Assembly (NCBI GenBank): GCA_973895155.1
Contig: OZ316899.1
Location: forward strand, 1,077,573-1,141,572
From: Marsupella aquatica
Lineage: Eukaryota > Plantae > Marchantiophyta
DNA: 64,000 nucleotides
Direction of reading: 5' to 3'
Position 1 is the stretch's first letter. Each line of letters starts with the position of its first letter. Positions 1-55,417 of the stretch are shown in pieces. A program made the translations under genes and the position numbers. The notes below the pieces were generated by a model. The model saw only the letters and a list, made by a program, of their open reading frames with translations, ran no database searches and was not told where the DNA came from.

Positions 1-3000
1 CAGTAAGCAGACCAAACAGCGGGAACGCGGACTCGACAAACTAGACTACAAAGGTTAGTATGACCCTTACAGCCTTGGGATTTTGGACCTTGTTTGGCGA
101 CGTAGGTGCTAAGTTCTCCAAGACTTACTAGTACTCTTGTCCCGAGAAAGCCGCTTATGAACGAAGATACGCAAAGCTGGTGGCCAAGGTAGCACAGGTT
201 AATTGCGAGAAGACAGCCATCACCAGAGATTCCAGCTACAACGAGCTGCGAGACTACATCACCGAGCTATATCTCAACGAGGAAGGGCTTAGATCGGTAG
301 CAAAGGCGATTCTTGAAGTCCCCGCAAAGTTCTTTAGGCTAAAGGGCAGCCAGCGGCTTACTCAAGCGGAGTTTGACAAGATCCCGGGGTACCTAGACCA
401 GCAGATCGCAGCCGAAAGGCGCCAAGAAGACATCAGCAGACAACGGGAAGCGGCGCGTAACCTTACGTTCCTCGGGGAAATGTCCAACGCCTTCAACTGG
501 GATATGGCAACACCAACACCACCAGCGCCTCAGCCGATGACCACCGGCGTACCACCGAACCAGTCCCAAGTCCGCCCCGTGAACAATACCGAGTGTTCTT
601 TGGGTTTCGAGCGAGTTAGTCCGCATCTCGAGCAGCGTTCTTGTAAGCAGGCAAGAACGACGCCGGCACCCAAATCGACAACACGAACCAACGCCGCTCC
701 TGCACCTGCCCCAACAAACCCCCCGGCCAACCAGACCCGACGGCCCCCGGATAATCCCAAGTCTAACTTATTACAGGTAATCCGCGTTCCCGAGGTAGTC
801 TGGATCGCGATCAAGAAACTCAACCACACGGAATATCTCAAGGAGCATCAGTTAGAGCAGTTCGCTCACTTGCTATGGAGACCGTGCTTGGCCGGGCCAA
901 AGGAGATTTGTGAGTTCATCTCCAATTTCGACACCGACGCATCGACCACTAAGGTTTCAGGGCAGACCTTATCACTCACGGAGCATCGGTTGGCACAGAT
1001 CTTCTGCATGCCAAGCGGACCGGTGCCGGTTGAACTCCGAATTTGGGATGAGGAGTATACACCTCGACACTTCAAACCCGAAGGTAAGACAAACAACGGA
1101 TACAAGCAGGGGTCATGCACCAACTTAATCTGCATGGAGCGGCTTAACTTCATACGGACTACCCTACACATGATTGAGCCACGATCCAAGATTTCCCTCT
1201 GCACGATCGTGCAGGTGGAACAGTACAAACGGCGGAACTGGGCCCAATTCTTTTACCGAAGGTTCTCGGGAGAGCTTAAGCGGGCTCAGGGAGGTATGGC
1301 TATTGGGGGGAAGACTTACTTGGGAAGTCATATCGCCATCATCCTCGCCTGGTACAAAGCACGGCGGGAGGCCAGGGGAAAGAATATGGCCACCTCAGCC
1401 CCGACTAATGTCACCCCCGCCCCAGAAGAGGCAACCCCAAGTGGGCGGACTACCGTCCCTTGGGCAAACCCCAAGCCGGAGGCCCCGACTAATACTCCGT
1501 CACCTCCTCCTGTCAAAATTCCGCCGCCCCCTTCCGTCGAGCCTCCGCTACCCGCAGTACCACCACCCCCAATTCCTCCACCACCTGAAGAAACCTTCCC
1601 CTCCCCAGCGCAGACTACGGAGGAGATCATTGCCCCGCCCGAGGAACCACCGGTACCCGAGAGGATGGAGGACTACCAAATAGCCCCGGAGACCATGGCC
1701 TACGACCTGGTCCAGAAGTTTAGCCAGACTATGTTTGGGGAGCTGGCGATGTACATCGAACAACAAGTCTCGACGTACTTTCAACCAGCCTTCTTCATGT
1801 TAGAGCACCAACCACGGATCGTCGGCCGCTTGGAAGAAGAACTCATGGCGAAGGGGAATGAGATCGGGCGACTCCAAATGCTGGTGGAACACCTCGAGGA
1901 GGAGGCCACTACCCGCCGCGAGGAGTTAGCCCGCACCGTCGAACAGCGAGACGGACTAACCCAGGAGTTGAGTGGGGCACAAGCAGATCTCAAGAAGCTG
2001 GACGACACCGTGCTTCAGTTGCGCTCAGAATCCTCAGCTCGGGTTACTAGCCTAACCAACCTCAACAACCAATTCCTGCAGGCAGCTCAGCAGGTGGCTA
2101 GTCTCTCCGCTGAACGGGATAAATTGCTGGCGCAGGACCAGACCCATCGCGACTCCATTAACCAGCTCAATCGGGAGGTAGCTCGGCTCCAGACAGAGGC
2201 CGATGAAGCCACAAACGAGGCGGAGGAGGCGGTGCGGGACAACAAGGCCTTGCAGGACCGCATTACCCTGCTCGTCCTCCAGCAGGGAAAATCTGGGCCC
2301 ACCTCTGATCAAGGCGGCTCGAGGTCTTGCCTTGACAGGGGGACAAACCCTAGTCCGACCACAGCACGCACGTAAGGGGTGGTTAGCGAAGGGTGGAAGC
2401 AGGCGCCGCGCAAGGCAGTGAGTCAACAACATCTTGTGGTTAGGTGTAACGACAAAATAGCTGTCATTAGGCGCCAATTAGCGGCAGTAGGAAGAATTAG
2501 GACCGAAACAGTCAGGATCAGCCAACGTAGGATGGAGTCCATCAACGGACTAGATTTTGTCAGTAGGCTTAGCTGTTGCCATTCCGGTCAGCACCCTTGT
2601 CGTCGACGGTCAACCAGTCAGGGCGGCGCAGCCAGTTAGTCAGTAGAAGAAAAGGCGAGACACGGGGAGTCCCGGCCTGAGCAAGGTCAAAGCGCACCAA
2701 GGAGTGAGAGCCAGAGTCAAGCTTGCTGGGCAAGTGCGAGGCGGGGCCTCGTAGAGACTGGGCATCGACTGCCGTTGGGCCTGCTGACCCCCCTTAGAAG
2801 TCGAGTCAACCATGTAAACTGATGCTTCGCTGAGTAAATGTAGTCTTTTCCCTCTAATGTTCCGCGAGTAACTGGTGTTGTGTGTATGCGTTGTCTGGGC
2901 AAAGGCGCCATTTCAAAGGACGTACAGGGTGCGGACTAATGGTAGAGATTGCCACCCATTGCATGTCATAAGGTTCTGTCGCGTTGATGGCTTGAAAGCC

Positions 3001-6200: not shown

Positions 6201-6727
6201 AATGAACCCTGCTGAGAAGAACTATACTGTCACGGAAAGGGAAGCCTTGGCGGTGGTGTTTGCGCGTAAGAAGTTCAGACATTACTTGTTGGGCTATCCT
6301 ACGGTATTTCATACTGATCATTCTTCGCTAAAATATTTAGTCAATCAAACTGATCTTTCCGGAAGAATTGCTAGATGGGTTCTTTTACTACAAGAATTTG
6401 ACTTTACTGTGGAAGTTCAACCCGGAAAACATCATGAGAATGCTGATTTCCTCTCGAGGATAGACGGTGAGGCGAACAAATCTCCATTGAATAATAGATT
6501 TCCGGATGAAGATATTTTCTGTGTTCATGAGGAGGATTCTTGGTATGCTGATATCATCAAACTTCTGACTTTGGGTGTTTTACCAGAAAATCTGAACAAG
6601 GAGCAACAAGCAGTTTTCATCCATAAGGTTGGACCTTATACTTTATGCGGAGGTGTGTTGTACAAGCAGACTCCAGATCAAGAGTTAAAGAGATGTCTTG
6701 AGAAGAAGGAGATTAAGACTATGATTC
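3224..6727 (+). pseudogene. Decayed Ty3/Gypsy gag-pol fragment (family D): zinc knuckle, protease, RT, RNase H, start of integrase linker
   Basis: CGNCGKEGHLPMEC knuckle; PVDGGSGVN protease; MPFGLCNAPGTFQR and FIDDF RT motifs; YIDASAFCVGAVLSQ and ERE ALAVVF RNase H. Several in-frame stops (4078, 4528, 5827). Confidence 0.93.
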
Positions 6728-8429: not shown

Positions 8430-8431
8430 CC

Positions 8432-9295
8432 GCCACCAAATGGGTCGAGGCACGGGCTATGGTGAAAGACGACGCCACAACAAGCGCCAGGTTCTTATAT
8501 GAACAGATTTTCACTCGCTTCAGGCCACCACTGGAGCTAGTCAGCGATCGGGGAACGCATTTCATCAATGACACCATCACGCGCCTCACGGAACGATACC
8601 TGGTCAAACATCGCAAGACCACCCCGTACCACCCAAAGGCCAACGGTCTGACGGAGAGAGCAAATGGTATTATTGGGAAAGTCCTCAACAAAACCGTAGC
8701 CGCGCATAAAACCGATTGGGATGACAAATTATACGTCACGCTATACTCGTATAATCTAGCTTACAAAACTACTACAAGTCACAGTCCGTATTTTCTCGTG
8801 TTTGGCCGACATTCGTTGGTGCCCGTTGAGTTTAAAGTACACACTCCACGAGTCAGCATTCGGGATCGCTTACCCGAATCTGAAAGTTTGTCAGACCGAG
8901 CTTATCAAATTGAAGCCTTAGAAGAGGCACGGCTACTGGCAGCTTGACACGCCGTAAAGTAGTAGGCAGCTTCCAAGAAGCAACACGACAAAGGACTACA
9001 AAAGGTCGACGTCGTGACGAGCGATCTAGTCCTACTGTACGATAGTAGGTACATGTAGTTTCCGGGGAAGCTTCATACCCGTTGGTAAGGGCCTTTCCTA
9101 GTCAATCAGATCTATCCTAACGGATCTTTGGAACTTGCAACGTACGCCGACGATTTACTCCCCATGCAAGTCAGTTACGATCGTGTGAAGAAGTACCACC
9201 ATCAAGATAACGACGCCGATAGTGATGTTCACGAGGATGCTTCACAATTAAGCAGGGAGCTATGTGCCGCCGCCGGTACGGCAGGAAATGAGTGA
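8432..9295 (+). pseudogene. C-terminal half of a Gypsy integrase (family A', close relative of the intact element)
   Basis: ATKWVEARA, LVSDRGTHF, TPYHPKANGLTER motifs. Near-colinear with 23070-23934. Premature stops at 8945 and beyond. Followed by PPT AAGCAGGGAG and LTR start TGTG at 9263. Confidence 0.92.
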
Positions 9296-9620
9296 TTTGG
9301 CCTAACCGCACTTAGCATGCACGTTAGGGGTATCTTAGGCCGTAATTATTAGAGTAACGACAGTATTTAGGTAGCTATTATGAGAAGGAAATCATTAGTC
9401 AATAAGGGGCATTTGTGTTTGGGCCGGCGACGGGTCGCCATTTGCACGTCGGGTTGTGAGCGTGTAATGGGCCCCTTCCTCGGGTCCGTATAATGAACTC
9501 CGGGAGGCGACCACTAACACACGCTGGCCCGGACTGGTGGAGTGGTCGGTACACTGCAAGCGTGAAAGGCTCGGCCTATAAGCGACGAGGAGGCGTCAGG
9601 CGACCGACGAGCTCCCAGGG

Positions 9621-9627
9621 TATAAAA
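9621..9627 (+). promoter_or_regulatory. TATA box of family A' LTR
   Basis: TATAAAA at the position homologous to 14167 and 24260, ~100 bp upstream of the LTR ORF ATG. Confidence 0.6.
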
Positions 9628-9726
9628 TGGGGGCCAATCGTTTGCAGGGCACCAGTTCTTCAGTTCATGCGCCAGCTTCGACCCCAGTTCTCTCGCTCAG
9701 CCTTAGTCGCCTTCTATCTCCTCTGA

Positions 9727-12236
9727 ATGTTGCACACAATCCTTTCCAGTTCGGCCATACGATTTTGGACGCAGTTCCTCTCTATCAGAGGGCACTTGGC
9801 TGACTCATTGAAACATGCCAACCCGCGCTGATACAAAATTGAATGCGAATACAAGAGAGCCATCCGCCTAGCAGGCCACCGCCACTATCTCCTTAACTTT
9901 GACTACCCGTCCTAGAGCGAGCTTTACCAACCCGAAGAGATATCAGGGTACTTCTTCAACGGAGGCAAATATATCGGCTTCTGGAGGCACTGCTTCGGCT
10001 TCTGAACGAGGTCTTCAATATCCCAGGCACGATCAACTTACAGCGGCACCACTTCGATCACATCCCCGCTCGGGTCCAGGCTATCATCAACAGCAAGTTT
10101 GACACTACCTGGTCGACAAGGCCGTCTACACTTGCTTTGGAAAACCTCCACCGGCACCTACAGAACTTCATGGCAACTACACCATCAACAACCGGTGCCG
10201 GCCCGCCCGTGCCCGTACCCGCATCCACACCACCTCGGCCTCAACCGAGCCAATCCCCGCCACCGGTTGCACCACCTCTTTGAGTACAATCCGTGGTGAA
10301 TGCGGTGAATATTAGCTCCGAAGACGAGGAGGCTCACCCCCCTCTGAATCAACGGCCGCGGGGTATGACTCTACAGTTGCCGAACAACCCGACGCCACTC
10401 CAGCAAGCCCGAGGGGATAACACGATGACTCTAGCGGCCCCGGCACCAATACTCACGGCAATGGCACTACCGCCACCAGATAGGGAAGATGGGGATATGT
10501 CCCCCTCTTCCAATCACCCCAGGAATCAGTCTCGAGGAAGGAAGAGGAAGGAACCCACAACCGTATCCGGGTTACCTTTGGCCACGGTTGCGGTAGCCAA
10601 GCTAACCATGCATCGCATAGGGGACAATGTTCACAAGAACATCCTCCACCCCAAGCATGCATGCTATCTGAAGACCCAAGGGTTTGAGCACCTTGCCTCT
10701 CTCCCTTGGAACGGAAGTAGGTACTACGGGCAGGATATGACGGAGTTCATTAAGAACTTTGACAAGGCCCGTCAACAAACCTGAGCGCACGGGAGAGTGA
10801 TGTGTCTCAATGAGGCACGTTTGAAGATGATTTTCGGCCTACCCGAGGGGATAAACCAGGTAGAGTCACGAGCTCTTGGGGGCAAGGGAGCTAAATACCA
10901 GTCTTCTAGCTTCCTGACCGAGGGAGCAGTGGACAATGGATTCTTGATGAGGACGTGCCTCATCCCAGAAGTGGCAAAACGCCTGGAGTTCCAGCGGTAC
11001 GCCCTCCACATGATGGAACCCAGAGGCAAAATATCGTCCGCCCAGGTCATCTAGGTGGAGAACTATCAGCCCAGGAAGTGGGCGTCCTTCTTCGTCAAGA
11101 AGTTCCACGAGGAGATGGAGCGGAGAAGAAAAACTTTACACCTTGGCAGAAAGGCATACTTTGCTAGCCACATCAAAATCATCATCGAGTGGTACGCTCA
11201 TTTTGACCGCCGCAGCCTCCCACGTATCAACGAGCCCGAGCTAACCCCGTCAAAGTGGGTGTTTCCAGCCCAGGTGAGGCGACCGCAGCCCAAGGCCCAA
11301 AGTTTGGCAGCTGCAAGCCCTGCTACCCCGGCCCCGCAACCCGCCGTTGCCGCCCCGCCAAGCATACCCATGGATGTCATCGCGACCTTAGATGCGATCA
11401 ATTGGGTCAATGCAATCAAAGTCGGGCCGGATGAAGCCATACCCGAACCAGATACCAAGGTAGCCGAGGAGATTCCGCCACCCCCGCGGTTGTGCAGGAG
11501 AACCGCCCAGCTCCAGTGGAACCAACCCCTTTGACCGACTTACCTCAAGGGCTGGATGTTTCCACTCCTACTCCCGCACGGGTTGGAGTTTGCCCGTGCC
11601 CGAATCCAGATGGACATAGTCTAGACCATCCGGAACTCTTTGCGCCGGTCACATTTTTGAACGGGTTGTTGGGAGATTTCTCTCAACAGATCTCACGGGA
11701 CACCGGGGAATACATGGCCCGGAAGGTGGCCTACTTCTTCAACCAGGAGTTGGTTGCGGCTGTAAAAGCAGGACATGCACAGGCAAAGATAGTGCAGAGA
11801 ATAGAGCGATACCGGGTTGAGTCTGCCTACCTGAAGGACAAAGTGGCAACCTGGAGGCTGAACTCCAGCAACTGCGGCCTTAGGTAATGGGCACGGAGGA
11901 CCAGGTTGTCAAGGCCAGGGCCCAGGCAGCTTTAGCAGAATAGGCCGGGCTCGGAAAGGATGCCAAGATTGCACGGCTCCGGACCAAGATCGATGGTTTG
12001 AAGGGACAAACTGTCATTTGGCAGAAGGATCTGGAGGACGCTGACTCTCGGTCTTAGTGGGACACAACCAAGATTGACACCCTGAAGACAGAGGTGGCGC
12101 GGCTTCAAGGAGAAGCCACAAAGCAGGCCCAGTTGGTGGATAAGCTGACAAGCGACGCCCAACAACTGGAGGAGGCATGCCAAGAGGCCGCGAAAGAGGC
12201 GGACGCAACGAAGCGGGAGAATGAATCTCTGCTGGA
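9727..12236 (+). pseudogene. Decayed LTR-borne ORF of family A' (3' end at 54438-54534)
   Basis: Colinear with 14275-16922. Multiple TGA/TAG stops at former CGA/CAG codons and one -1 frameshift near 9983. The N-terminal domain reads in frame through the PVPVP linker into VNAVNIS. Confidence 0.88.
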
Positions 12237-12814: not shown

Positions 12815-13150
12815 GGTCCAATAAATTTATCGGAGTATCCATTCCTGTCATTGATTGAAGATTGCTTGAGACTCCGATAAATTTATTGCACTTTCCATTC
12901 CTGTGATTGATTGAAGGTTGCTTGAGACTCCGATAAATTATCGGAGTTTCCATTCCAGTGATTGATTGAGGATTGCTTGAGACTCCGATAAATTTATCGG
13001 AGTATCCAATCCCTGTGATTGATTGAAGATTGCTTGAGACTCCGATAAATTTATTGGACTTTCCATTCCAGTGATTGATTTAGGATTGCTTGAGACTCCG
13101 ATAAATTTATCGAAGTTTCCATTCTTGTGATTGATTGAAGATTGCTTGAG
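12815..13150 (+). repeat. ~56-bp subterminal tandem repeat x6, each unit carrying a CGATAAATTTATCG-type palindrome
   Basis: GAGACTCCGATAAATTT recurs at 12868, 12924, 12979, 13036, 13092. Confidence 0.92.
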
Positions 13151-13337: not shown

Positions 13338-13808
13338 ATGGCTGTCTTAATTCAAAATCATGTCAAACGTGCATGCTGGTTGTACAAGAAACTTGTGCAA
13401 TGTAAAGTTCTCCCCATTGGTGTAGGAGCGTTGTGGATGGGTGGTACTGATCTCGGAGATAGGCAGAATCCTCTCCGGATTGAGTTCTACGGAATGAATG
13501 GTGCAAGAGTTCCAATCCGTTCGAGGTTGATGTTAACGGCGTGTCTCCATTCTTTGGAGTTTTCTTGTAACTATTGTTGTCGTCGTCTTGACAACAAGTA
13601 CCATAAATTGGCATACTTATGTTGTCAAATTTGGAACGAGGACCCTTGGGTCAACCTTTCACGATGAGTGTTGCGACCTTCACATTGAGGCACGTTTTGT
13701 AAGGACACATTTAAGTAAACAAGTCCTACCCATGTGCAGCGAATACAATATGGTCCGAGTTTTTGCTTGACACTGGTGGGAAGTTATATTCGTACAGGAC
13801 TCGTCAAC
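13338..13808 (+). pseudogene. Possible decayed Cys-rich gene of unknown function, interrupted by the Gypsy insertion (may continue 27915-28195)
   Basis: 109-aa ORF with coding-like frame continuing past stops, and a Cys-rich ORF (CQCCTNACC) after the insertion. No recognised motif. Confidence 0.25.
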
Positions 13809-14166
13809 TGTGACGCTGCCGGTATGGCGGTTAATGAGTGATTCAGTCTAACTGCGCTCGGCACACGCGTTAGGTGGGTCTTAGGCCGCTATTATTAGCA
13901 TAACGACAGTATTTAGGTAATCATTAGGGGTAGGACATCATTAGGCAATAAGGGGGACTTCAGGTTCGGGCTGGCGGCGGGTCGCTATTCGCACACCCGG
14001 GTTACGAGCGTGGAGGGGCCCCTCCCTCGGGTCCGTATAACAAACTTAAGGAAGCGGCCACTGACGCACGCTGACTCAGACCGGCGGAGTGGCCGGTACA
14101 CCACAAGCGTGAGCGGTTCAACCTATGGGCGTCGAGGAGACGTCGGGGATCAACAAGCCCTCAAAG

Positions 14167-14173
14167 TATAAAA
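14167..14173 (+). promoter_or_regulatory. LTR TATA box (also 24260-24266)
   Basis: GTATAAAAGGGG, conserved in the family A' LTR at 9621. Confidence 0.65.
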
Positions 14174-14274
14174 GGGGAGCCAACCCTTTGTAGTGCACCA
14201 GTCCATCAGTCCGCGCGCCAGCTTCGACCCCAGCTCTCTCGTTCTCTCTAGGTCGCCACTACTATCTCCTTTGA

Positions 14275-16922
14275 ATGTCGCACACGATCCTCTCCAGCTC
14301 GGCCATTCGATTCTGGACGCAGTTCCTATCTACCGGAAGGCACTTGGCCGATTCATTGAAACACGCCAACCCGCGCCGATACGAGATCGAACGCGAATAC
14401 GAGAGAGCCATCCGCCTAGCAGGACGACACCACTACGTCCTTAACTTTGACTACCCATCTCAGAGCGAGCTTTACCGACCAGCTGAGGTATCTGGGTACT
14501 TCTTCAACGGAGACAAATATATCGGGTTCTGGGAAGCATTGCTTCGGCTTCCGGACGAGGTCTTCAATATCCCGGGTACAATCGACCTGCAGCGACATCA
14601 CTTCGACCACATCCCTGCCCAGGTTCGGGCTGTCATTAACGGCAAGTCCAGTACCAACCGTTCGACAAGGGCGTCCGCACTCGCTTCGGAGAACTTCTAC
14701 CAGCACCTGCAGAGCTTCATGGGAACTCGACCATCAACCAACATGACCAACCAGCCGGACCTGTACCCGTACCCGTACCCGTGCCCATGCAACCCCAGCC
14801 TCAACTTCAGCTTCAGCCTCAGCCGCAGCCTAGCCAAACCCCACCACCTATCACCCAGCCAGCACAGGTACGCTCCGTCATCAACGCTGTGGATCTTAGC
14901 GATGACGACGAGGCTACCCCACCCTTGACCAGGCGGCCCAGAGGAACAAGCGCGCGGAGGGCCGACACTATATCGTCCCCACCCCCTGCTCTGACCCCAG
15001 GAGCGGCCCCAGCAGACAACATAGTGACCGTGGCCGCCCCGGGCCCGTTACCAACCGCAGTGGCACTCCCCAGGCCCGATCGGGAGGATGGGGAAGTATC
15101 ACCTTCCCCGAGTCAGTCACGAGGAAAGAAGAGGAAGGAATCCGCCACTGCATCCGGGTTACCGTTGGCCACGGTAGCCGTAGCCAAGGTGACGATGCAT
15201 CGCATGGGGGAAAACGTTCATAGCAACATCCTCCATCCCAAGCATGCGGTGTACCTGAAGACTCAGGGATTTGAGCACCTCACCTCTCTCCCCTGGAACA
15301 CTTGCAGGTACTACGGGGAGGACATGACAGAATTCGTCAAGAATTATGACGACGTACGTCAACAGACTCGGCTGCGGGGAAGGAATATGTCCCTCACAGA
15401 AGAACGGCTCAAGATGATCTTCGGGTTACCCGAAGGTGACCATCGAGTCGAATCACGGGCTCCCGGGGGCAAGGGGGCCAAGTACCAATCTTCAAGTTTT
15501 CCCTCAGAGGGATCAGTAGACAACGGGTTCATGATGAGGACCTGCCTCATGCCCGAGATAGCTGAGCGGCTGGAGTTCCAGAGGTATGCTCTCCACATGA
15601 TGGAACCCCGGGGGGAGATCTCCGCCGCCCAGGTTATCCAGGTCGAGAACTATCGACCTAGGAAATGGGCGTCGTACTTCGCTAAGAAATTCCATGAAGA
15701 GATGGAGCGGCGAAGGAAGACGCTGTACATTGGCGGGAAGGCGTATTTCGCTAGCCATATCGAAATCATTCTTGAGTGGTACGCCCGGTTTGATCGACGA
15801 ACCCTTCCCCGCATCAACGTTACAAAGCTGGTCCCAGCTAGGTGGGTTTTTCCGGCATTGGAGAGACGGCCCCAACCCGAGGCCCGAAGTCCAGTGGACA
15901 CGCCAGCTTCACCCACCCCACCTCCACAAATAGCTGTAATCGTAACCGAGGAGGCGCCGGAGGGGTCGGTCGTCGCAACCGTTGATGCGACCCAACTAGC
16001 CGGGCTAAGTACAGAAGTTGGTACGGCAGAGGTCTTACCCGAACCCGGGTCTCCCAAGGACCCGCCGGTGGCAATTCCGGAGAACCGGACATTGCTGCAG
16101 GAGGACACTCCAGCCCCTTCCAACGTTATGTCCCCAGGGCTGGACGTCACTGCCCCGGCCCCTGCGCGTGTTGATGTCTGCCCGTGCCCAAATCCGGACA
16201 GGCACAACTTGGACCACCCGGAACTCTTCGTACAGGGTACGTTTCTGAACGGGCTTCTGGGAGATTTCTCTCATCAAATTGCCCAGGATACCGGGGAGTT
16301 CATGGCCCGGAAGGTAGCCTGTTTCTTCAATCAGGAGTTGGTTGCTGCCGTAAAGGCAGGTCGGGCCCAGTCGGAGGCCCTTCAGAGGATAGAGCGGTAC
16401 CGGGTGGAGTCCGTGTACCTAAAGAACGAAGTGGCGGCTCAAGAGGCTGAGCTTCTGCAACTACGACCCAAGGTTGCAGCCGCCGATGAGTTGTTAGCAA
16501 AGGCGTACGCTCTTACCGCCCTAGCCGAACAGGCCAAAGCTGGGAACGAGGCCGAGATTACACGACTCCGGAACCAGATTGACAATTTGAAGAAACAAGC
16601 TGTCACCTGGCAGAAAGACCTGGAGGAGGCCGAGGAGCGAGCCCAGCGGGACGCGACGGAGATAGCCACGCTGCAGGCCGAGATGGCGCGGCTCCAAACC
16701 GAGGCCGAGAAGCAGGACCAGCTGGCGAGTAAACTGACGAGCGACGCCCAGCAGCTGGAGGAGGCATGTCAGGAGGCAGCAGAGGAGACGGACGCGGCGA
16801 GGCGAGAGAACGAATCTCTGCTGGACCAGGTCCAGCTCCTCAAAGCGGACAATGACAGGCTTCGAAGGCAGCGGGATGGCCGTTCCCATTCGGGCGGCTC
16901 TGGCAAGCGTGCCAGGCATTAG
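14275..16922 (+). CDS. LTR-borne ORF, 5' LTR copy; consensus 882 aa, split here by one 1-nt deletion at ~14751
   Basis: ORFs 14275-14928 and 14781-16922 join if the T present at 24838 in the 3' LTR is restored. Has NLS-like RGKKRK and KRARH, a central ATHILA-ORF1-like domain and a C-terminal coiled coil. Confidence 0.85.
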
Positions 16923-17838
16923 CGGCGGAGTAGGAATAGATTAGGATTAGGATTGGCTTAGTCAGGCTCTTGGGACAGGCACCTGCCTTAGGTACAGCAG
17001 CGCTGCCCTGCTGTCTAGCCTGCGTAGATTAGGATCTTCTAATAAGACACAGCCGTTTTCCGGCCTGACTGTCAGCTTAGTTAGGACCTTAGTCAGCGAA
17101 TCTTCGGCGAGAGGACACCCCGTTCCTCGGCTCTTAGTATTTAGTGCACCCCTCGGTAGAGGCAAGGGGGGGGGGGGGGTTTTAGTTTCAGAGTCGAACA
17201 TCCGCGGGACATGCGGGGAGTCCCGACCTCTGGGAATGACAGAGTACCAAGGGGAGGGGGTAGGACTAAGCTCACCGGGCGAGTGCGGAGCCGGGCTCCG
17301 TTGTAGTGTGCACCCTCGGCCTTGAACCTGTGCATTCCAGGGCTGTCGTGTCAACTAAGTGTACGCATATGTTCCCTTTGTAGTAAAATCCTTTCCCATC
17401 ATTTTCCTTCGTGTAAATCGAGATTGTATGCATGTGTGCGCATATGTGTGTGGGCTTCTCGTATATGGGTGGCAGCGCCAGGCCGAACGCACTACCCGAG
17501 ACGTGCACAGGGTGCAGCCTGCGGGTAAGTGGTTGCAAGCACGGGTTGAGGACCTGTATCATCGAATCCGGATCGAAGGCGGACAGCACGAAGGCTTAGA
17601 AGCCCTTAAGCCGGGGTCGATCCTGCTATCGACTAAGGTACGTTCCGGCGGCGGAACACAAACCATACCTAGGAGGTGTCCGTATTTAGCAGTATGCGCA
17701 CTTAGCGCTAGTTTACGAGAATAAGGTGCATTACGTGCTTCCCTTCCTGCCCGAACCCTCAGATTTACGAGGGATGTGCCCGTCTAAGCTGAAGTCTGAG
17801 TTAAGGCCAAAGCCTACGACGTGACATAGCCTTTGTTT

Positions 17839-17856
17839 TGGCGCTAGATGGAGGGG
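17839..17856 (+). other. Primer binding site, tRNA-Asn(GUU) type
   Basis: TGGCGCTAGATGGAGGGG versus TGGCGCTAGAAGGAGGGG expected from the angiosperm tRNA-Asn 3' end as I recall it (17/18). Lies 12 nt after the LTR end. Confidence 0.75.
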
Positions 17857-20900: not shown

Positions 20901-23900
20901 CTCATGGGATCCGTCCATTCCGCAATTGGAGGAAGTAAACCCCATCCCGAGACCAATCCCGGTCCCACCCATGTACGGAGGGGTTCGGTTAGTTGAGCTT
21001 GACGCGAGCCTGGACCCAAGTCTGCGAAACCAGGTTGAAGTCATCAGGAAGGAGCACTACCGGAAGTACACTATTGGGATGGATAAATCTTTTAACCTGG
21101 GCCACGCTCTGACGGGGAAGGCTGAAAAATCCATCCAAGCTTTGCTCAAGGAATATGAAGATGTGTTTGCATGGAGTCATCATGATTTAACAGGCGTCTC
21201 CCCCGAGTTGGGAGAACACACAATCGATCTGAACCTAGGAGCCCATGCGGTACGACAGCGACAACGTCGCATGAATCCGAGGTACTCCATCTTAGTGAAG
21301 GAGGAAATTGATCGTCTCCTCGCCGCCGATATCATTTACCCGGTAATGGCCAGCGACTGGGTCTCTCCCATTGTCATTGTACCAAAGAAGGGAGGTACGG
21401 ATGGAAAACCTAAGATTCGTATCTGTCAGGACTACCGTAAGCTGAATGACGCAACCCGAAAAGACCATTACCCATTACCATTCACGGATATGGTTCTAGA
21501 TATGGTGGCCCGAAATGAAATCTATACATTTCTTGACGGGTATTCAGGTTATAACCAAATCTGGATTCGTCTCACGGATCAGCTCAAAACAACTTTCACT
21601 ACGGAGTGGGGAACGTTCGCATTTCGGAGGATGCCTTTTGGTCTGTGTAACGCCCCGGCTATGTTTCAGCGCCTTATGATGAATATCTTCCATGATTTCC
21701 TACGGGAATTTTTGGAGATATTTATCGATGACTTTGCCATCTTCGGAACCGTTGCCATGCACCCCGAACACCTACGACGAACGTTGCAACGATGCCGAGA
21801 TGTTAACCTCAAACTACATCCCGCCAAATGCTTCTTCGGGGTAGAGGAGGGGGTGTTACTCGGGCATCGTATGTCCAAACGGGGCATTGAGGTGGACCAA
21901 GAGAAAGTTGCGGCCTGGATGGCGGTGGTGTTCCCCTTGGATCAAAAAGCAGTACAATCCTTCTTGGGCTGCGTAGGGTATTACCGCCGGTTCATTAAAG
22001 ACTTTGCTAAAATTGCGTTGCCCTTAACTGAGATGATGAAGAAGGACGCAGCGGTCGAGGAGACACCCCGGAGACGGATTGCTTTTGAGGAACTCCGTAA
22101 ACGACTCACCACCGCGCCTATCATGGTCACCCCAGACTGGAATAAGGAGTTCCACGTGTATGTCGATGTGTCAGGGTTCTGTATCGGATCCGTACTTAGT
22201 CAGCTAGATGAGGATGGACGTGATCACCCCATCTATTTCGCTAGCCGTCAACTATTTGCAGCCAAAAAGAATTATTCCCCCACTGATCGAGAAGCTTTGG
22301 GAATAATCTACTCGTGTAAAAAGTTCCGACACTATCTGCTAGGCTACAAGGTCATTTTCCACACGGATCATGATAGCCTAAAGTACATGGTCAACAAAGC
22401 GGATGTGACAGGACGGATAGCCCGGTGGGTGCTACTTCTCCAGGAATTTAATTACGAAGTTCGGGTTCGGCCAGGAAGGGTACACCTCAATGCCGATTTC
22501 TTTTCACGACTGGACGGCGTACCAGTCGATCAGCCAATTGATGATATTTTTCCGGATGAGGAGTTGTTCCACGTGGGGGAAGGGACACCAACGTGGTACG
22601 GCTCAATAATCACCTTCCTTTTAATGGGCCGCATCCCTGACGGCATCAATCAGGAGGCCGCCGCTGTGTTTTTACGGAAAGCCGGGCCTTACGTCATGAT
22701 ACAGGGTCACCTACATAAGGAAGGTATTAACGGAAAGTTACGACGCTGCTTAGAGTATAAGGAGACACTTATCGTGATACGGGCCCTGCATGAAGAAGAA
22801 GCTGGAGGCCATTTCGCGGCAGTTACGACAGCCCGAAAGATTCTGGACTCGGGGTATTGGTGGCCTACGTTGCATCGGGATGTACAGCGCTTCATTAAGG
22901 GCTGTGACTTGTGTCAGCGAGCGGGGGCCCCGAGGTGGGCTCATCATCACCCGCTCACATCTGTGCTTCCATTGGCACCATTCGAAAAATGGGGAATTGA
23001 TTATATCGGACCGTTCACTCCCGTTACCCGAAGGCGAAGGTGCAGGTACATCCTATTAGCTATTGATTACTCCACCAAATGGGTCGAAGCGCGGGCTACG
23101 GTAAAGGACGACGCCGCAACCAGTGCCAGATTCTTATACGAACAGATTTTCACCCGATTCGGACCGCCCTTAGAATTGGTAAGCGACCGTGGAACCCACT
23201 TCCTCAATGACACCGTAGCCCAGCTTACGGAGCGTTACCTAGTCAAGCACCGCAAGACTACCCCATATCATCCTAAAGCCAACGGGATGGCGGAGAGAGC
23301 AAATGGTATCATTGGGAAGATCCTCAACAAAACTATAGCTGCGCACAAAACGGATTGGGATGATAAGTTGTACGCGGCGGTGTACTCGTATAATCTAGCT
23401 TACAAAACTACTACGAGTCACAGCCCGTACTTTCTGGTGTTCGGCCAACATTCGTTGGTGCCCGTCGAATTTGAAGTGCACACTCCACGGGTCAGCATTC
23501 GGGATCGCTTACCTGAATCTGAAAGTCTGTCAGACCGAGCTTATCAGATTGAAGCCTTGGAAGAAGCACGACTACTGGCAGCTCGACACACCGTGAAGAA
23601 ACAGGCAACTTCGAAGAAGCAGCACGACAAAGGACTACGGAGGGTCGACGTCGTGGCAGGCGATCTAGTCCTTCTGTACGATAGTAGGTACATGCAGTTT
23701 CCAGGGAAGCTGCATACCCGGTGGTTGGGGCCCTTCCTTGTCAATCAGATCTACCGAAACGGATCTTTGGAGCTTGCGACGTATGCCGGCGATTTACTCC
23801 CCACGCGAATCAGCTACGATCGTGTAAAAAAGTACCACCATCAAGATGACGACGCCGATAGCGATGTTTGCGAGGACGCTTCACAATTAAGCAGGGAGCT

Positions 23901-23934
23901 ATGTGACGCCGCCGGTACGGCGGTTAATGAGTGA
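17950..23934 (+). CDS. gag-pol: Gag-Pol polyprotein, 1994 aa, single frame
   Basis: Gag (FKGRHGDDPDEWLDEFE), three CCHC knuckles, protease LVDGGAGVN, RT FIDDF, RNase H, integrase HHCC plus WGIDYIG/SDRG/AER, WLGPF motif. No chromodomain and no extra archaeal-type RNase H. The stop lies 33 nt inside the 3' LTR. Confidence 0.97.
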   Translation: MPVTRSQAAYLRRLTSERESATTTSSDSSGSEDSQSSRRMNIPPGSSGSGSTGPAAVPPPPPPMAAAPPVARAAQAPPQISQRLRFHYRPFKGRHGDDPDEWLDEFEATAKANGEDAIKLTVLPGVMRGEARPWYNSLPPGTTWAQFQAALLQEFRAIGSEQHSLLKIGQLRMGKKESLRKFIQKFQKLAAKIRPRPGDTLQLTWFLHDLPTNMQFWVRQNNPISMQAAIACAETYRESTYNSRRSQRARRRKGKYETFSDSDSKSDDERKKKRKKKKKHCSTSSSSETESSSDSASSIGSSTSSSSGSDLESESRSKKKKRRVKEGKIKPRARRTIPDPKAAEADKLNEITDRLKALSVHLAEKPVEKKKPFEIRTHAWCSKCFQSGHVVQECPRWKNRVHQVELDDVDNPGPKSESTEYFFEDPPDSVYQISTVGPRNLAGRTAYPYPSNGQSFQVISNPSIPPKPGIWRSPVCYNCEKPGHFARECTEPRRQGDGRGTPLCQVCKTEAHSTANCPLVIVARTSAARPAQAGPVTSDAVVQMIAVEWQDDNTEWVNLVDVAEHPNPLDEAECYRVSTRAERKEEKTEEKRRKKQDTTPVQPAINIPPKKDDDYQRDDPKLFFPRIEELVKKQLEAYEAREYQKAIDKDIKAAETARRQEQEKQDKQEEAKQQPTKETKEDYDIKEDVKSCPVTATVGQLLQNNPQYRRQLRELLMGRRRRRLPRVGSADCNMICEDLGAPDISIEINNCTIKMVLVDGGAGVNIMTEETSVKLGYLTYQPTARAIRLANGARVLPLGTLTRVLTLVGGVEFYLNFLVMRPVRPSSYPVLLGRPWLYGGRVVTDWGKKELRFGEPTVRVSWAMDDYQGETPQGPEEYDSETSEEEELNMIELISSLSEEDVFGVEATRETHLLNYPRAAIESTPSTSTVGDEETHEQLVETEDTAPAKQGAEPTPSISEPRNHEPAQQPPEAENSRPRHKKRVSWDPSIPQLEEVNPIPRPIPVPPMYGGVRLVELDASLDPSLRNQVEVIRKEHYRKYTIGMDKSFNLGHALTGKAEKSIQALLKEYEDVFAWSHHDLTGVSPELGEHTIDLNLGAHAVRQRQRRMNPRYSILVKEEIDRLLAADIIYPVMASDWVSPIVIVPKKGGTDGKPKIRICQDYRKLNDATRKDHYPLPFTDMVLDMVARNEIYTFLDGYSGYNQIWIRLTDQLKTTFTTEWGTFAFRRMPFGLCNAPAMFQRLMMNIFHDFLREFLEIFIDDFAIFGTVAMHPEHLRRTLQRCRDVNLKLHPAKCFFGVEEGVLLGHRMSKRGIEVDQEKVAAWMAVVFPLDQKAVQSFLGCVGYYRRFIKDFAKIALPLTEMMKKDAAVEETPRRRIAFEELRKRLTTAPIMVTPDWNKEFHVYVDVSGFCIGSVLSQLDEDGRDHPIYFASRQLFAAKKNYSPTDREALGIIYSCKKFRHYLLGYKVIFHTDHDSLKYMVNKADVTGRIARWVLLLQEFNYEVRVRPGRVHLNADFFSRLDGVPVDQPIDDIFPDEELFHVGEGTPTWYGSIITFLLMGRIPDGINQEAAAVFLRKAGPYVMIQGHLHKEGINGKLRRCLEYKETLIVIRALHEEEAGGHFAAVTTARKILDSGYWWPTLHRDVQRFIKGCDLCQRAGAPRWAHHHPLTSVLPLAPFEKWGIDYIGPFTPVTRRRRCRYILLAIDYSTKWVEARATVKDDAATSARFLYEQIFTRFGPPLELVSDRGTHFLNDTVAQLTERYLVKHRKTTPYHPKANGMAERANGIIGKILNKTIAAHKTDWDDKLYAAVYSYNLAYKTTTSHSPYFLVFGQHSLVPVEFEVHTPRVSIRDRLPESESLSDRAYQIEALEEARLLAARHTVKKQATSKKQHDKGLRRVDVVAGDLVLLYDSRYMQFPGKLHTRWLGPFLVNQIYRNGSLELATYAGDLLPTRISYDRVKKYHHQDDDADSDVCEDASQLSRELCDAAGTAVNE
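23889..23898 (+). other. Polypurine tract
   Basis: AAGCAGGGAG 3 nt before the 3' LTR TG; same sequence at 9250-9259. Confidence 0.7.
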
Positions 23935-26900
23935 TTCAGTCTAACTACGCTCGGCACGCGTGTTAGGTGGGTCTTAGGCCGCTATTATTAGCATAACGAC
24001 AGTATTTAGGTAATCATTAGGGGTAGGACATCATTAGGCAATAAGGGGGACTTCAGGTTCGGGCTGGCGGCGGGTCGCTATTCGCACACCCGGGTTACGA
24101 GCGTGGAGGGGCCCCTCCCTCGGGTCCGTATAACGAACTTAAGGAAGCGGCCACTGACGCACGCTGACTCAGACCGGCGGAGTGGCCGGTACACCACAAG
24201 CGTGAGCGGTTCAACCTATGGGCGTCGAGGAGACGTCGGGGATCGACAAGCCCTCAAAGTATAAAAGGGGAGCCAACCCTTTGTAGTGCACCAGTCCATC
24301 AGTCCGCGCGCCAGCTTCGACCCCAGCTCTCTCGTTCTCTCTAGGTCGCCACTACTATCTCCTTTGAATGTCGCACACGATCCTCTCCAGCTCGGCCATT
24401 CGATTCTAGACGCAGTTCCTATCTACCGGAAGGCACTTGGCCGATTCATTGAAACACGCCAACCCGCGCCGATACGAGATCGAACGCGAATACGAGAGAG
24501 CCATCCGCCTAGCAGGACGACACCACTACGTCCTTAACTTTGACTATCCGTCTCAGAGCGAGCTTTACCGACCAGCTGACGTATCTGGGTACTTCTTCAA
24601 CGGAGACAAATATATCGGGTTCTGGGAAGCATTGCTTCGGCTTCCGGACGAGGTCTTCAATATCCCGGGTACAATCGACCTGCAGCGACATCACTTTGAC
24701 CACATCCCTGCCCAGGTTCGGGCTGTCATTAACGGCGAGTCCAGTACCAACCGTTCGACAAGGGCGTCCGCACTCGCTTCGGATACCAGCACCTGCAGAG
24801 CTTCATGGGAACTCGGCCATCAACCAACATGACCAACTCAGCCGGACCTGTACCCGTACCCGTACCCGTGCCCATGCAACCCCAGCCTCAACTTCAGCTT
24901 CAGCCTCAGCCGCAGCCTAGCCAAACCCCACCACCTATCACCCAGCCAGCACAGGTATGCTCCGTCATCAACGCTGTGGATCTTAGCGATGACGACGAGG
25001 CTACCCCACCCTTGACCAGGCGGCCCAGAGGAACAAGCGCGCGGGGGGCCGACACTATATCGTCCCCACCCCCTGCTCTGACCCCAGGAGCGGCCCCAGC
25101 AGACAACATAGTGACCGTGGCCGCCCCGGGCCCGTTACCAACCGCAGTAGCACTCCCCAGGCCCGATCGGGAGGATGGGGAAGTATCACCTTCCCCGAGT
25201 CAGTCACGGGGAAAGAAGAGGAAGGAATCCGCCACTGCATCCGGGTTACCGTTGGCCACGGTAGCCGTAGCCAAGGTGACGATGCATCGCATGGGGGAAA
25301 ACGTTCATAGCAACATCCTCCATCCCAAGCATGCGGTGTACCTGAAGACTCAGGGATTTGAGCACCTCACCTCTCTCCCCTGGAACACTTGCAGGTACTA
25401 TGGGGAGGACATGACAGAATTCGTCAAGAATTATGACGACGTACGTCAACAGACTCGGCTGCGGGGAAGGAATATGTCCCTCACAGAAGAACGGCTCAAG
25501 ATGATCTTCGGGTTACCCGAAGGTGACCATCGAGTCGAATCACGGGCTCCCGGGGGCAAGGGGGCCAAGTACCAATCTTCAAGTTTTCCCTCAGAGGGAT
25601 CAGTAGACAACGGGTTCGTGATGAGGACCTGCCTCATGCCCGAGATAGCTGAGCGGCTGGAGTTCCAGAGGTACGCTCTCCACATGATGGAACCCCGGGG
25701 GGAGATCTCCGCCGCCCAGGTTATCCAGGTCGAGAACTATCGACCTAGGAAATGGGCGTCGTACTTCGCTAAGAAATTCCATGAAGAGATGGAGCGGCGA
25801 AGGAAGACGCTGTACATTGGCGGGAAGGCGTATTTCGCTAGCCATATCGAAATCATTCTTGAGTGGTACGCCCGGTTTGATCGACGAACCCTTCCCCGCA
25901 TCAACGTTACAAAGCTGGTCCCAGCTAGGTGGGTTTTTCCGGCATTGGAGAGACGGCCCCAACCCGAGGCCCGAAGTCCAGTGGACACGCCAGCTTCACC
26001 CACCCCACCTCCACAAATAGCTGTAATCGTAACCGAGGAGGCGCCGGAGGGGTCGGTCGTCGCAACCGTTGATGCGACCCAACTAGCCGGGCTAAGTACA
26101 GAAGTTGGTACGGCAGAGGTCTTACCCGAACCCGGGTCTCCCAAGGACCCACCGGTGGCAATTCCGGAGAACCGGACATCGCTGCAGGAGGACACTCCAG
26201 CCCCTTCCAACGTTATGTCCCCAGGGCTGGACGTCACTGCCCCGGCCCCTGCGCGTGTTGATGTCTGCCCGTGCCCAAATCCGGACAGGCACAACTTGGA
26301 CCACCCGGAACTCTTCGTACAGGGTACGTTTCTGAACGGGCTTCTGGGAGATTTCTCTCATCAAATTGCCCAGGATACCGGGGAGTTCATGGCCCGGAAG
26401 GTAGCCTATTTCTTCAATCAGGAGTTGGTTGCTGCCGTAAAGGCAGGTCGGGCCCAGTCGGAGGCCCTTCAGAGGATAGAGCGGTACCGGGTGGAGTCCG
26501 TGTACCTAAAGAACGAAGTGGCGGCTCAAGAGGCTGAGCTTCTGCAACTACGACCCAAGGTTGCAGCCGCCGATGAGTTGTTAGCAAAGGCGTACGCTCT
26601 TACCGCCCTAGCCGAACAGGCCAAAGCTGGGAACGAGGCCGAGATTACACGACTCCGGAACCAGATTGACAGTTTGAAGAAACAAGCTGTCACCTGGCAG
26701 AAAGACCTGGAGGAGGCCGAGGAGCGAGCCCAGCGGGACGCGACGGAGATAGCCACGCTGCAGGCCGAGATGGCGCGGCTCCAAACCGAGGCCGAGAAGC
26801 AGGACCAGCTGGCGAGTAAACTGGCGAGCGACGCCCAGCAGCTGGAGGAGGCATGTCAGGAGGCAGCAGAGGAGACGGACGCGGCGAGGCGAGAGAACGA

Positions 26901-27909
26901 ATCTCTGCTGGACCAGGTCCAGCTCCTCAAAGCGGACAATGACAGGCTTCGAAGGCAGCGGGATGGCCGTTCCCATTCGGGCGGCTCTGGCAAGCGTGCC
27001 AGGCATTAGCGGCGGAGTAGGAATAGATTAGGATTAGGATTGGTTTAGTCAGGCTCTTGGGACAGGCACCTGCCTTAGGTACAGCAGCGCTGCCCTGCTG
27101 TCCAGCCTGCGTAGATTAGGATCTTCTAATAAGACACAGCCGTTTTCCGGCCTGACTGTCAGCTTAGTTAGGACCTTAGTCAGCGAATCTTCGGCGAGAG
27201 GACACCCCGTTCCTTGGCTCTTAGTATTTAGTGCACCCCTCGGTAGAGGCAAGGGGGGGGGGTTTTAGTTTCAGAGTCGAACATCCGCGGGACATGCGGG
27301 GAGTCCCGACCTCTGGGAATGACAGAGTACCAAGGGGAGGGGGTAGGACTAAGCTCGTCGGGCGAGTGCGGAGCCGGGCTCCGTTGTAGTGTGCACCCTC
27401 GGCCTTGAACCTGTGCATTCCAGGGCTGTCGTGTCAACTAAGTGTACGCATATGTTCCCTTTGTAGTAAAATCCTTTCCCATCATTTTCCTTCGTGTAAA
27501 TCGAGATTGTATGCATGTGTGCGCATATGTGTGTGGGCTTCTCGTATATGGGTGGCAGCGCCAGGCCGAACGCACTACCCGAGACGTGCACAGGGTGCAG
27601 CCTGCGGGTAAGTGGTTGCGAGCACGGGTTGAGGACCTGTATCATCGAATCCGGATCGAAGGCGGACAGCACGAAGGCTTAGAAGCCCTTAAGCCGGGGT
27701 CGATCCTGCTATCGACTAAGGTACGTTCCGGCGGCGGAACACAAACCATACCTAGGAGGTGTCCGTATTTAGCAGTATGCGCACTTAGCGCTAGTTTACG
27801 AGAATAAGGTGCATTACGTGCTTCCCTTCCTGCCCGAACCCTCAGATTTACGAGGGATGTGCCCGTCTAAGCTGAAGTCTGAGTTAAGGCCGAAGCCTAC
27901 GACGTGACA
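23902..27909 (+). repeat. 3' LTR (4008 bp) containing a long ORF
   Basis: Direct repeat of 13809-17826, followed by TSD TCAAC. Confidence 0.96.
24368..27009 (+). pseudogene. LTR-borne ORF, 3' LTR copy; premature TAG at 24407-24409 and 7-nt deletion at 24783/24784; 734-aa C-terminal part open
   Basis: Direct comparison with the 5' LTR copy: TGG became TAG, and GAACTTC (14691-14697) is missing. Confidence 0.88.
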
Positions 27910-29645
27910 TCAACTCCCCCCTCGGCCTCTTTGTTCGTTATTTAGGTTAACTTATGTATCTTGTTTATGGACAAATGTCCTTGACAATGGTGAGATGTGT
28001 CAGTGTTGCACAAATGCCTGTTGTGACGTTTCATCACGCCGCTATTCAGTAGCTGTAGTTAATCCTAAGACTGGTGCCACGGATTTTCATTGGGTGTGGG
28101 CCTATGATCATAGGATCACTCATATACCCCAATGGCCCAAGAAGCTAATCTCTCGCTTTGCTGTAGCACGGTTTGATCTTGGGTGGGATGATTGATTAGG
28201 CACATTATCACATGTACACTCGGCCGTCAATTTAAAGAAGGCTCACTTTTTGTTTGGACCACTTTTGCAATAATTTTATCGGTGTTGGTCTCATTTTCAG
28301 ATGTTGACACATACGATAATGTAATATTGGCCGTCAATTTATATCGTGCTCATATTTTTTTGCGATAATTTTATCGGAGTTGGTATCGCTTGTGGAATGA
28401 CCTAATGCTTGTACGTGAATGAGCACTTTCTGAGTTCATTGTATCGATGTTTGCATGCCGGTTTTTGGTTTTTTGGTTTGTCAGAGCGATAAATTTATCG
28501 CTCCTTGCATTCAGATTTGCAGACTTATTCATCATGGGTCCTAGTGGGAAGAGTGGATCTGCCGAGGCTAAAAGTCTCATGACAAGCCTCACGAACGCGA
28601 TTTGGACAAGCGAAGACATTTGTGAAGAGGTCAAGTTCATCAAGAAACTGTGGTACTTCCGCGACGCCAGGTTATAGTCCAAGGATATGGCAGACTGTGA
28701 GTCTCCTATCCTTTGGGTCCAGATGCAAAAATCCGCAAAGGTTACTCTCTCATTTGGCCCCGTCGTTGGTGTGGCGATCTGTGAGTACTTGATTAGCCAG
28801 GGAGAGGCAAAAGTGTTGAAAGAGGGTCTGAGTTTCTTGACAATATGTGGAGGCAAGGGATTCACCTCTGTCATTGTCACCATGGAGAACTTTCTTGAGA
28901 AATCCCTTGAGAGTTACCCTGAAGACGCGCTTGTCGTGGAAGTTAGGTCAGCAAAAGTAATGAATCTTATGGGCCCAGCTTGGGTGTGCCAGTTTGTCCA
29001 AGATTGTGATCTCATCATGCTACTAAGGGTGAACGCAGAGTACAAGAGGCTCACAGGTGAAGAATTCAGACCCATCCGGAAAATAGTTATTAAGAGGCCT
29101 GGTTCTAACGGGAGTGGAGCTTCATCGGCAAAAAGCGCTGGAGGTACGGCTTTGGACGAGCCCAAAAGTGGTTCGGGGAAGGGAAGTGGCAGGGAGAAAG
29201 GGAGAGGGAGAGGGAACACCAGGGACAATGTTGCTGGTCCCTCCAAGGGCGGGAGAAGCGGCAGCAGCAATCATCAATGTCATGTAGCCGGTGCAGGTAT
29301 AGGCATTTCGGAAGCGCCTTACATAAATGTAAACGAGAGTAGAGGATCTGAGCGATCGGGGCCATCTGGAGTCAGCGTTAAGAGAAAGAGAACAGGTTGG
29401 AGTTTATCCACAGCCCCGGAAGGAGTGGAAGCCCCGATCGATATGGAGCCTCCGGTGATTGACGAGCGTTTGCCTCGTTCAGATATACAAGCCGAGGTTC
29501 GATCGGTAAGTGCTACCAAACTTTGATTTTCTATTGATGAAAGAGGATTTCGATAAAAATCTCGTTGTTTCTTTTGTAATCTAATTTCAAACGGCATTTT
29601 CTAGATTGATGAAGAGGAGGAGACTGCTCTTTCGATGTATGAGAC

Positions 29646-41800: not shown

Positions 41801-41925
41801 TTAGCCCTTTGCACAGCTCTCTGTTTTGCTAAGCAAAGTCCATTTCGTCCTTGGTGGGTCCGCAAAGCTGTATAATCCAGAAATCCCAAAGCTCCACAAA
41901 AATTACACTTAAAGTTTGAAGCCAT
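38831..41925 (-). CDS. Plavaka-type (CACTA/CMC-related) transposase with N-terminal C2H2 finger, 4 exons, apparently intact (~900 aa)
   Basis: CNFC...LRTHQ finger; APIILYSDQT, WPLVMTIGNI, LYICDQTEG, CSCCFC, LDGLHQSILGVFK, FNIVKVHAMSH, EYDTGIFEHLH motifs. GT-AG introns 40880-41021, 40377-40490 and ~39497-39626 all keep the frame. Confidence 0.85.
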
Positions 41926-54433: not shown

Positions 54434-55417
54434 TGGACCAGGTCCAGCTACTCAAGCAGGATGCCGACAGGCTCAGGAGGCAACGGGATAGTCGCTCCCA
54501 CTCAGGCGGCTCTGGCAAGCGTGCCAGGCATTAGCGGTAGAGTAGGATTAAAATAGAGTTAGGAATAGCTAAAATAGGCTATAGGGACAAGAGCCTGCCC
54601 TAGTTAAAGCGGCACTACCATACTGTCCAGCCTGCATAGATTAGGATCTTCTAATAAGACAAGTCATTTTCCGGCCTGACAGCCAGCTTAGTTAGGATCT
54701 TAGTTAGCGAATCTTTGGGCACAAGGCCACTTCGGTCCTCGGCTCTTAGTATTTAGTACACCCCTCGGTAGAGGCAGGGGGTTTTTTTGTTAGTCTCAGA
54801 GTGGGGCATTTGCGGTATGTGGGGGGAGTCCCGATCTCTGCGAGTGAAAGAGTACCAAGGGGAGGGGGTAGGACTAAGCTCGTCGGGCGAGTGCGGAGCC
54901 GAGCTCTATTGTAGTGTACACCCTCAACCTTGGACCTGTTCATCCGAGAGCTTTCGGGTCAACTAAGTGTACGTGTATGTCCCCTATGTAGTAAAATCCT
55001 TTCCCATTATTTCCTTCGTGTAAATCGAGATTGTATGCTTGCGCGTGTGCATATGTGTGAATCTTGTGTATGGGTGAATCTCGCACCTGAGCCATGCACG
55101 GGGTGCAACTTGCGGGTAAGTGGTTGCGAGCCCAAGTTGAGTGACCGTATCATCAAATCCGGATCGAAGGAGGACAGCACGAAGGCTTAAAAGCCCGTAA
55201 GCCGGGGTCGATCTCGCTATCGACTAAGGTATGTTCTGGCGGCGGAACACAAACCATACCTAGGAAGGGTCCGTAAATAATAGTAGACGCACTTAGCGCT
55301 AGTTTACATGAGTTAGGTGCATTCCGGGCTTCCCTCCCTGCTCAAATCCTCATATTTACGAAGGATGTGCCTGTCTAAGCCAAAGCCTGGTTTAAGGCCT
55401 AGGCTGACGATGTGACA
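54434..55417 (+). repeat. 3' LTR of family A' element, right part
   Basis: Resumes the ORF (DQVQLLKQ...KRARH*, stop 54532-54534) and ends TGTGACA at 55417. Confidence 0.9.

Follow-up and report, generated by a model that had tools for sequence, protein, structure and literature searches.

An accessory gene inside the long terminal repeats of a Ty3/gypsy retrotransposon from Marsupella aquatica

The stretch of Marsupella aquatica DNA analysed here (64,000 nucleotides, hereafter the window) contains a retrotransposon, element A, that carries a gene for an accessory protein within both of its long terminal repeats (LTRs). The frame is a genuine gene under purifying selection, and its position in the LTR is almost certainly the layout of a whole lineage. 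Our main reading of its role, to which we assign a probability of roughly 0.55 as a complete chain, is that the product would be a nuclear, oligomeric, family-specific factor that counteracts silencing or activates transcription in trans. The features discussed below are collected in Table 1.

Table 1. Positions of element A, its parts and the related LTR copies in the window
Feature	Position	Strand	Remark
Family C gene copy	60..2375	+	27-39% identity; 747 open codons after one early stop
Family B 3' LTR, first part, decayed gene copy	9263..12236	+	split by 42-kb insertion
TSD, left copy, TCAAC	13804..13808		
5' LTR of element A, 4018 bp, TG..CA	13809..17826	+	
TATA box TATAAAA at LTR +359, then pyrimidine patch	14167..14173	+	likely promoter of the LTR gene
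LTR accessory gene, ~882 codons	14275..16922	+	frameshift near 14750 in the 5' copy
N-terminal domain	14275..14652	+	no named family; 69-83% identity in family B and a short match in family C
Core domain, predicted VANC-like fold	15201..15845	+	modelled from relative L003
Predicted coiled coil, then basic C-terminus	16287..16871	+	KRAR at 16905-16916
Second TATA-like box with C-run/G-run	17137..17170	+	candidate genomic-RNA promoter
TGTA/AGTAAA cluster	17360..17430	+	candidate polyadenylation region
PBS	17839..17855	+	PBS-type sequence
gag-pol, one open frame, 1994 aa	17950..23934	+	GAG, zinc knuckle, PR, RT, RH, INT
Conserved LTR-start motif, 36 nt	23866..23901	+	includes weak polypurine tract
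3' LTR of element A, 4008 bp	23902..27909	+	gene copy at 24368-27009
TSD, right copy, TCAAC	27910..27914		
Family B 3' LTR, second part	54434..55417	+	
Family B' LTR, 3' 2.75 kb, decayed gene copy	55418..58167	+	

Comparison of the window with itself revealed a pair of direct repeats of 98.9% identity (K2P distance 0.0083). Both repeats have TG..CA termini and the same 5-bp target site duplication (TSD) lies on either side; in other words, the 4-kb repeats are the true LTRs of a 14.1-kb Ty3/gypsy element. An earlier note on this DNA had stated that TSD, termini, primer binding site (PBS) and polypurine tract define the LTRs unambiguously. The first three stand, whereas the polypurine tract is a weak purine tract that is recognisable because the 36-nt motif around it is kept in relatives. 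The interior is nearly all gag-pol, the stop codon of which lies 33 nt inside the 3' LTR. A domain search of gag-pol found no second RNase H and no chromodomain, and a spacer of about 110 aa separates RNase H from the integrase zinc finger. The PBS of element A is putatively of the tRNA-Asn type and those of relatives L002, L004 and L005 putatively of the tRNA-Asp type; a tRNA scan found none. The PBS is offset from the LTR end by 12 nt (17827-17838), and by 5-11 nt in L002, L004 and L005; element A and its relatives thus exceed the 0-5 nt offset that the REXdb account gives for PBS scoring (PMC6317226).

The accessory frame covers 66% of the LTR, in line with the two thirds reported before. 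The claim that each LTR encodes a protein of about 880 aa has to be corrected, since neither copy in element A is continuous: the 5' copy has its frameshift, the 3' copy is interrupted twice, by a stop at about 24408 and by a frameshift near 24783, and reading from an ATG yields at most 711 and 734 aa, respectively. A length difference at the 14750 site is seen in contigs from all six public runs that were mapped there, so the break looks private to the 5' copy. The protein contains Pro-rich linkers and KKRK, RRRK and KRAR motifs, and its C-terminal part is rich in E, K, Q, R, L and A, the proxy by which the coiled coil is predicted here (coiled-coil Pfam matches were sub-threshold only). These parts agree with the earlier description, as does, by hydrophobicity alone, the absence of a signal peptide or transmembrane helix: the maximum Kyte-Doolittle (KD) value over 19-mers is 1.13, and 0.45 in the N-terminal piece. 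None of the 25 long family members reaches 1.8, and an env-like extra ORF was rejected on these values. The N-terminal domain has no counterpart in the metagenome relatives.

The selection on the frame is best seen between element A and family B. In the core domain 117 changes fall on third codon positions and 35 and 25 on the first two, with a dN/dS of about 0.05, an approximate figure as dS is near saturation. The same limit applies to the N-terminal blocks (0.17 and 0.21), the linkers (0.2-0.6), the coiled coil (about 0.2) and the integrase that served as control (0.08). Within the family there is no contrast, i.e. 11 of 24 variants are synonymous and likewise 9 of the 19 differences between the two LTRs.

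In order to see how general the layout is, contigs of four public runs were mapped on the LTR and the interior; the values are summed contig depth, not copy number. The LTR exceeds the interior 4.3-fold in run X1 and 5.2-fold in X3, the bins of the ORF do so 5.3-fold and 7.3-fold, depth drops at both LTR ends, and joints that skip parts of the ORF are at most 230 deep among the joints listed. These values speak against a short-LTR form being common and only hint at LTRs that are solo or truncated. A metagenome scan with the integrase gave 79 loci (the core domain gave none among 96 candidates). The 36-nt LTR-start motif follows pol directly in L001, L002, L003, L004, L006, L007, L008, L009 and L032; L032 is a near-copy of L007, and a match in L017 is stray and distant from pol. 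A homologous ORF lies downstream of the motif in all of these except L001, where the contig ends; seven metagenome loci show the gene after the LTR-start motif. In L002 and L004 one contig holds both the LTR start and the LTR end that precedes the PBS, the former as an inverted copy of the latter, and this places the gene within the LTR; in the remaining relatives the placement relies on the LTR-start motif. The idea of a lineage-wide layout, already put forward in the earlier note, is thereby borne out.

The sister arrangement is internal. In L005, which is circularly assembled, the homologous gene follows pol and precedes a 990-bp LTR, and the spacings resemble those of element A (505 vs 434 nt before the gene, 1126 vs 917 nt after it), and internal-type elements retain a G-rich tract immediately after pol. 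L024 also has a long ORF ahead of an LTR motif, a likeness of position that does not imply homology to the accessory gene. An integrase tree of 20 rows (15 element rows from the window and the loci, 5 proteins; LG+G4, flowering-plant root) placed the LTR-type rows on one side of a branch (91/92) with the group of L005 as sister. The internal types as one clade were rejected (AU p=0.008, for groups named after a first tree); a single origin of the LTR-type layout is possible. The internal layout of L005 and the near-equal spacings are most simply read as one circle opened at different places, and the most likely course of events would be that the LTR start moved upstream past a gene that was once internal.

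Element A shows the traits of Ty3/gypsy elements, i.e. a pair of TG..CA LTRs, TSD, PBS and the order PR-RT-RH-INT. An Athila-like retrotransposon is the best explanation of its sequence: the 5-bp TSD, the single GAG-PROT-RT-RH-INT frame and the lack of archaeal RNase H and chromodomain match the Athila entry of the REXdb table, in which the PBS is complementary to tRNA-Asp or tRNA-Asn (PMC6317226). The extra ORF of Athila is similar as well, being on the sense strand with a globular domain, a coiled coil and basic motifs, but it lies between pol and the 3' LTR, whereas that of element A lies within both LTRs. Tat, Ogre and Retand were rejected given the single RNase H and the missing archaeal RNase H, and so were Phygy and Selgy, which are described with a 4-bp TSD, a Trp or Ala PBS, no extra ORF and a length of 4.4-10 kb (PMC6317226). 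In the integrase trees, which compare window, metagenome and flowering-plant rows, element A falls outside the flowering-plant rows (100/100), on a separate branch among the metagenome relatives. The closest pol relatives are metagenome proteins (60-75%), and the best named matches are elements of flowering plants (about 45%). The accessory protein itself had been credited with an ATHILA-ORF1-like domain; however, neither ATHILA ORF-1 (PF03078) nor Transposase_32 (PF20167) matched any window protein above the gathering score. Transposase_32 matched 2 of 139 family members (best E 0.005), and in hhalign the best matches of both proteins compared fell at the start of Transposase_32 with weak E values (0.21 and 0.12; 0.56 with the larger profile), which faintly suggests a link to the ATHILA ORF-1/Transposase_32 group.

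The core domain belongs to a family of 930 clusters without a name. Its model, built from L003, matched the fold of VANC21 (PDB 9LNK) over 193 residues at 11% identity, and on this prediction the domain probably has a VANC-like fold. Foldseek searches against the PDB and viral models and a second-look aligner gave no further structural match, and sequence searches of the PDB gave none. A word-indexed protein search with the core domain had no matches and a profile had two; no DUF1985, DUF287 or PMD match was among the Pfam matches shown for window proteins. VANC21 is reported to bind dense arrays of short motifs in the non-coding parts of its own element and to remove methylation there (PMC5735166). 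The accessory protein shares with it the predicted fold, a coiled coil beside the domain, a transposon as carrier and short repeated motifs in the element's non-coding DNA, the last being weak in element A; the carriers differ, VANDAL21 being a Mutator-like DNA transposon (PMC5735166) and ours a Gypsy LTR. The predicted match to VANC21 lends the proposed anti-silencing role independent structural support. Gypsy elements of flowering plants are already known to bear PMD domains (PMC5418596, PMC13547354), and an anti-silencing role has been speculated for plant mobile domains borne by Mutator elements (PMC5418596).

As for the motifs, TTAG is over-represented on the plus strand of the non-coding LTR of A, B, C and D and TCCGG in four relatives; the words were chosen post hoc and mutation bias is possible. 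In the non-coding parts of L002, L004, L007, L008 and L009, TCCGGA/ATCCGG is far more frequent than expected (37 counted against 2.2 expected in L004) and it is raised in coding parts too; L005 has AGCGCT instead.

The strict test for a TATA box with a pyrimidine patch was positive in 5 of 9 LTR starts at +300..480, at a shuffle rate of at most 0.4%; the boxes that passed lie 330-460 nt into the LTR. The TGTA/AGTAAA cluster lies 430-510 nt past the stop in A, B' and C, by an uncontrolled count. With the TATA box ahead of the gene and the poly(A)-like cluster behind it, each LTR looks like a complete transcription unit. The second TATA-like box is found about 690 nt ahead of the LTR end in both LTRs of A, in B', in the part of B near 54k and in both family D copies.

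The five ORF-bearing LTR copies that the earlier note counted in the window could all be located (A5', A3', B, B' and C). The family C gene sits in an LTR-like segment that ends near 3225 and for which no PBS or TSD was found. At the junction 55417/55418 the end of the family B LTR abuts about position +1220 of the B' LTR, consistent with an insertion into the LTR gene of an older relative. Since no solo LTR with a TSD is seen within the 64-kb window, the survival of the gene in solo LTRs is something we infer. Family D comprises LTR-like segments at about 29780-31995 and at 58168-59791 (both minus strand), the start of which resembles that of A's LTR and which share its post-gene motifs. They hold arrays of TTAG-containing repeats and no accessory ORF (longest frame 146 codons); family D is possibly a non-coding relative that uses the accessory protein in trans.

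The segment 12237-54433 splits the family B LTR within its gene. It has imperfect terminal inverted repeats (10/10 and 24/30 matches) and a 4-bp duplication TGGA, it contains element A, the family D LTR D1 and a Plavaka-type transposase (41011-41925, minus; Pfam E 2e-21), and by these sequence features it appears to be a DNA transposon, either giant or heavily nested. ORFs of 240-330 aa without a Pfam name (32032-33996, 37010-37822, 28687-29526 and 47642-48364) are possible cargo, and short tandem arrays lie at 12817-13150, 36485-36824, 48960-49915 and 53536-53834. Elsewhere, 3241-8430 is a decayed gag-pol of a different family (40-56% to A) that becomes family B integrase at about 8430 and includes a piece with a broken frame (about 6790-8200). 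A fragment at 61706-62821 has a weak RT match (E 0.018) and is LINE-like by eye.

The mechanism that we propose would run as follows. Plus-strand priming and the attachment site would have moved away from a tract downstream of the gene to a tract adjoining the end of pol, making the spacer and the gene part of U3. Each LTR would then be a self-contained unit with its TATA box at +359, ORF and poly(A)-like cluster, and the genomic RNA would start at the second TATA-like box past the gene. The accessory protein would enter the nucleus, oligomerise via its coiled coil, bind short motifs that recur in the non-coding stretches of the LTR, and lower silencing or raise transcription in trans, and two copies per element together with lone LTRs would raise its dose. 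A bolder form, which we hold only tentatively, is that in a whole clade of plant Gypsy elements the LTR took up a sequence-specific anti-silencing gene of the VANC type, together with the promoter, poly(A) signal and binding motifs that belong to it. Any LTR, even a solo one, would then activate itself and lift silencing from the family in trans, and the domain family would be an older, retrotransposon-borne relative of VANC/MAIN.

Several other explanations have to be weighed against this mechanism. A local duplication, or an error of assembly, could in principle have produced the 4-kb repeats around an ordinary short-LTR element with an internal gene, a reading that only their unusual size and the internal layout of the sister L005 might suggest. 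It is refuted by a TSD and a PBS that sit right at the 4-kb boundaries, by family B, the LTR of which has the same start and size, by the fall of depth at both boundaries in the public runs and the agreement of the relatives, and it has next to no probability. A different possibility touches the expression step alone: the +359 promoter would make both RNAs, with the gene in a 3-kb R region, the ORF as first cistron and gag-pol expressed via read-through and splicing or a separate start. The +359 box is indeed the sole canonical TATAAA in the A LTR, and a donor-like word GTGAG occurs between TATA and ATG in all seven relatives checked (an uncontrolled observation). However, this word is missing from A and B, the second box is kept in six window copies including those of the ORF-less family D, and a start at this box would give ordinary R and U5 lengths with the gene in U3, as in sag and nef, whereas minus-strand strong-stop DNA would otherwise be 3.6 kb. 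We lean towards the second box as the start of the genomic RNA and regard the long R region as a serious but less probable arrangement.

As to the role of the protein, the gene and the fold could be as proposed while the product serves in integration targeting or nuclear import as a chromatin tether. The integrase of element A lacks a chromodomain, a tether could equally well have a DNA-binding fold, a coiled coil and basic motifs, and nuclear or regulatory roles have been proposed for other plant extra ORFs (PMC7264820, PMC11963269). Yet the sole structural neighbour counteracts silencing and binds to the very element that encodes it, and the short motif repeats in the element's non-coding DNA fit self-binding, if weakly, so we consider a tether unlikely. 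More improbable still is that the gene brings no anti-silencing gain and is either a relic retained only by descent or, in the manner of MAIN, a self-limiting repressor. All five window copies are broken, family D has the LTR motifs without the ORF, and MAIN and MAIL1 are described as acting in silencing (PMC5418596), but the strong purifying selection between families speaks against it, as do the 632-853 open codons in L003, L005, L007 and L008 and the fact that in runs X2 and X4 the sole frame-changing site at a share of at least 20% across the ORF is the break of the 5' copy. The anti-silencing or trans-activating factor remains our preferred reading.

The best known parallels are MMTV sag and lentiviral nef, protein genes that lie in an LTR and are duplicated with it (PMC2664473). 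The proteins are unrelated, and the accessory gene takes about 2.6 kb of a 4-kb LTR as against an MMTV LTR of 1.3 kb (PMC2664473). Moreover, element A has no envelope and its protein is predicted to be nuclear, not membrane-bound. Among plant Gypsy elements, Retrosat2/RIRE3 ORF0 (PMC3485330), Grande gene23 and Retand TRP28 (PMC7264820, PMC11963269) are alike in having long LTRs and/or an extra ORF with a probably nuclear role, and the Grande ORF is reported to have its own promoter (PMC7264820, PMC11963269). Nevertheless, these ORFs belong to other lineages and are described outside the LTR, either ahead of gag-pol or in the stretch from pol to the 3' LTR, where they are often antisense. In the full-text literature searched we found no description of a plant LTR retrotransposon with an extra ORF inside the LTR, although an earlier mention elsewhere is possible. 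A review places extra ORFs in the internal region (PMC7264820), and in passages of PMC3485330, PMC1142308, PMC11728184, PMC11963269, PMC12885004 and PMC7466625 they are internal or not treated.

Extra ORFs are common in plant LTR retrotransposons and their function is still in question (PMC7264820); likewise, the origin of the plant mobile domain, from Gypsy elements or host genes, has been called fully open (PMC5418596). With the core domain, a family of 930 clusters gains a predicted structural link to the sole transposon anti-silencing protein with a solved DNA complex. The lineage further indicates that the edge of an LTR can move past an entire gene and so create, in plants, an arrangement like that of sag, and pipelines that seek extra ORFs only between the LTRs would miss such genes. 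If the proposed role is true, solo LTRs, which are usually counted as dead, would be protein-coding regulators, and the host's main route of removing elements would become a source of counter-defence.
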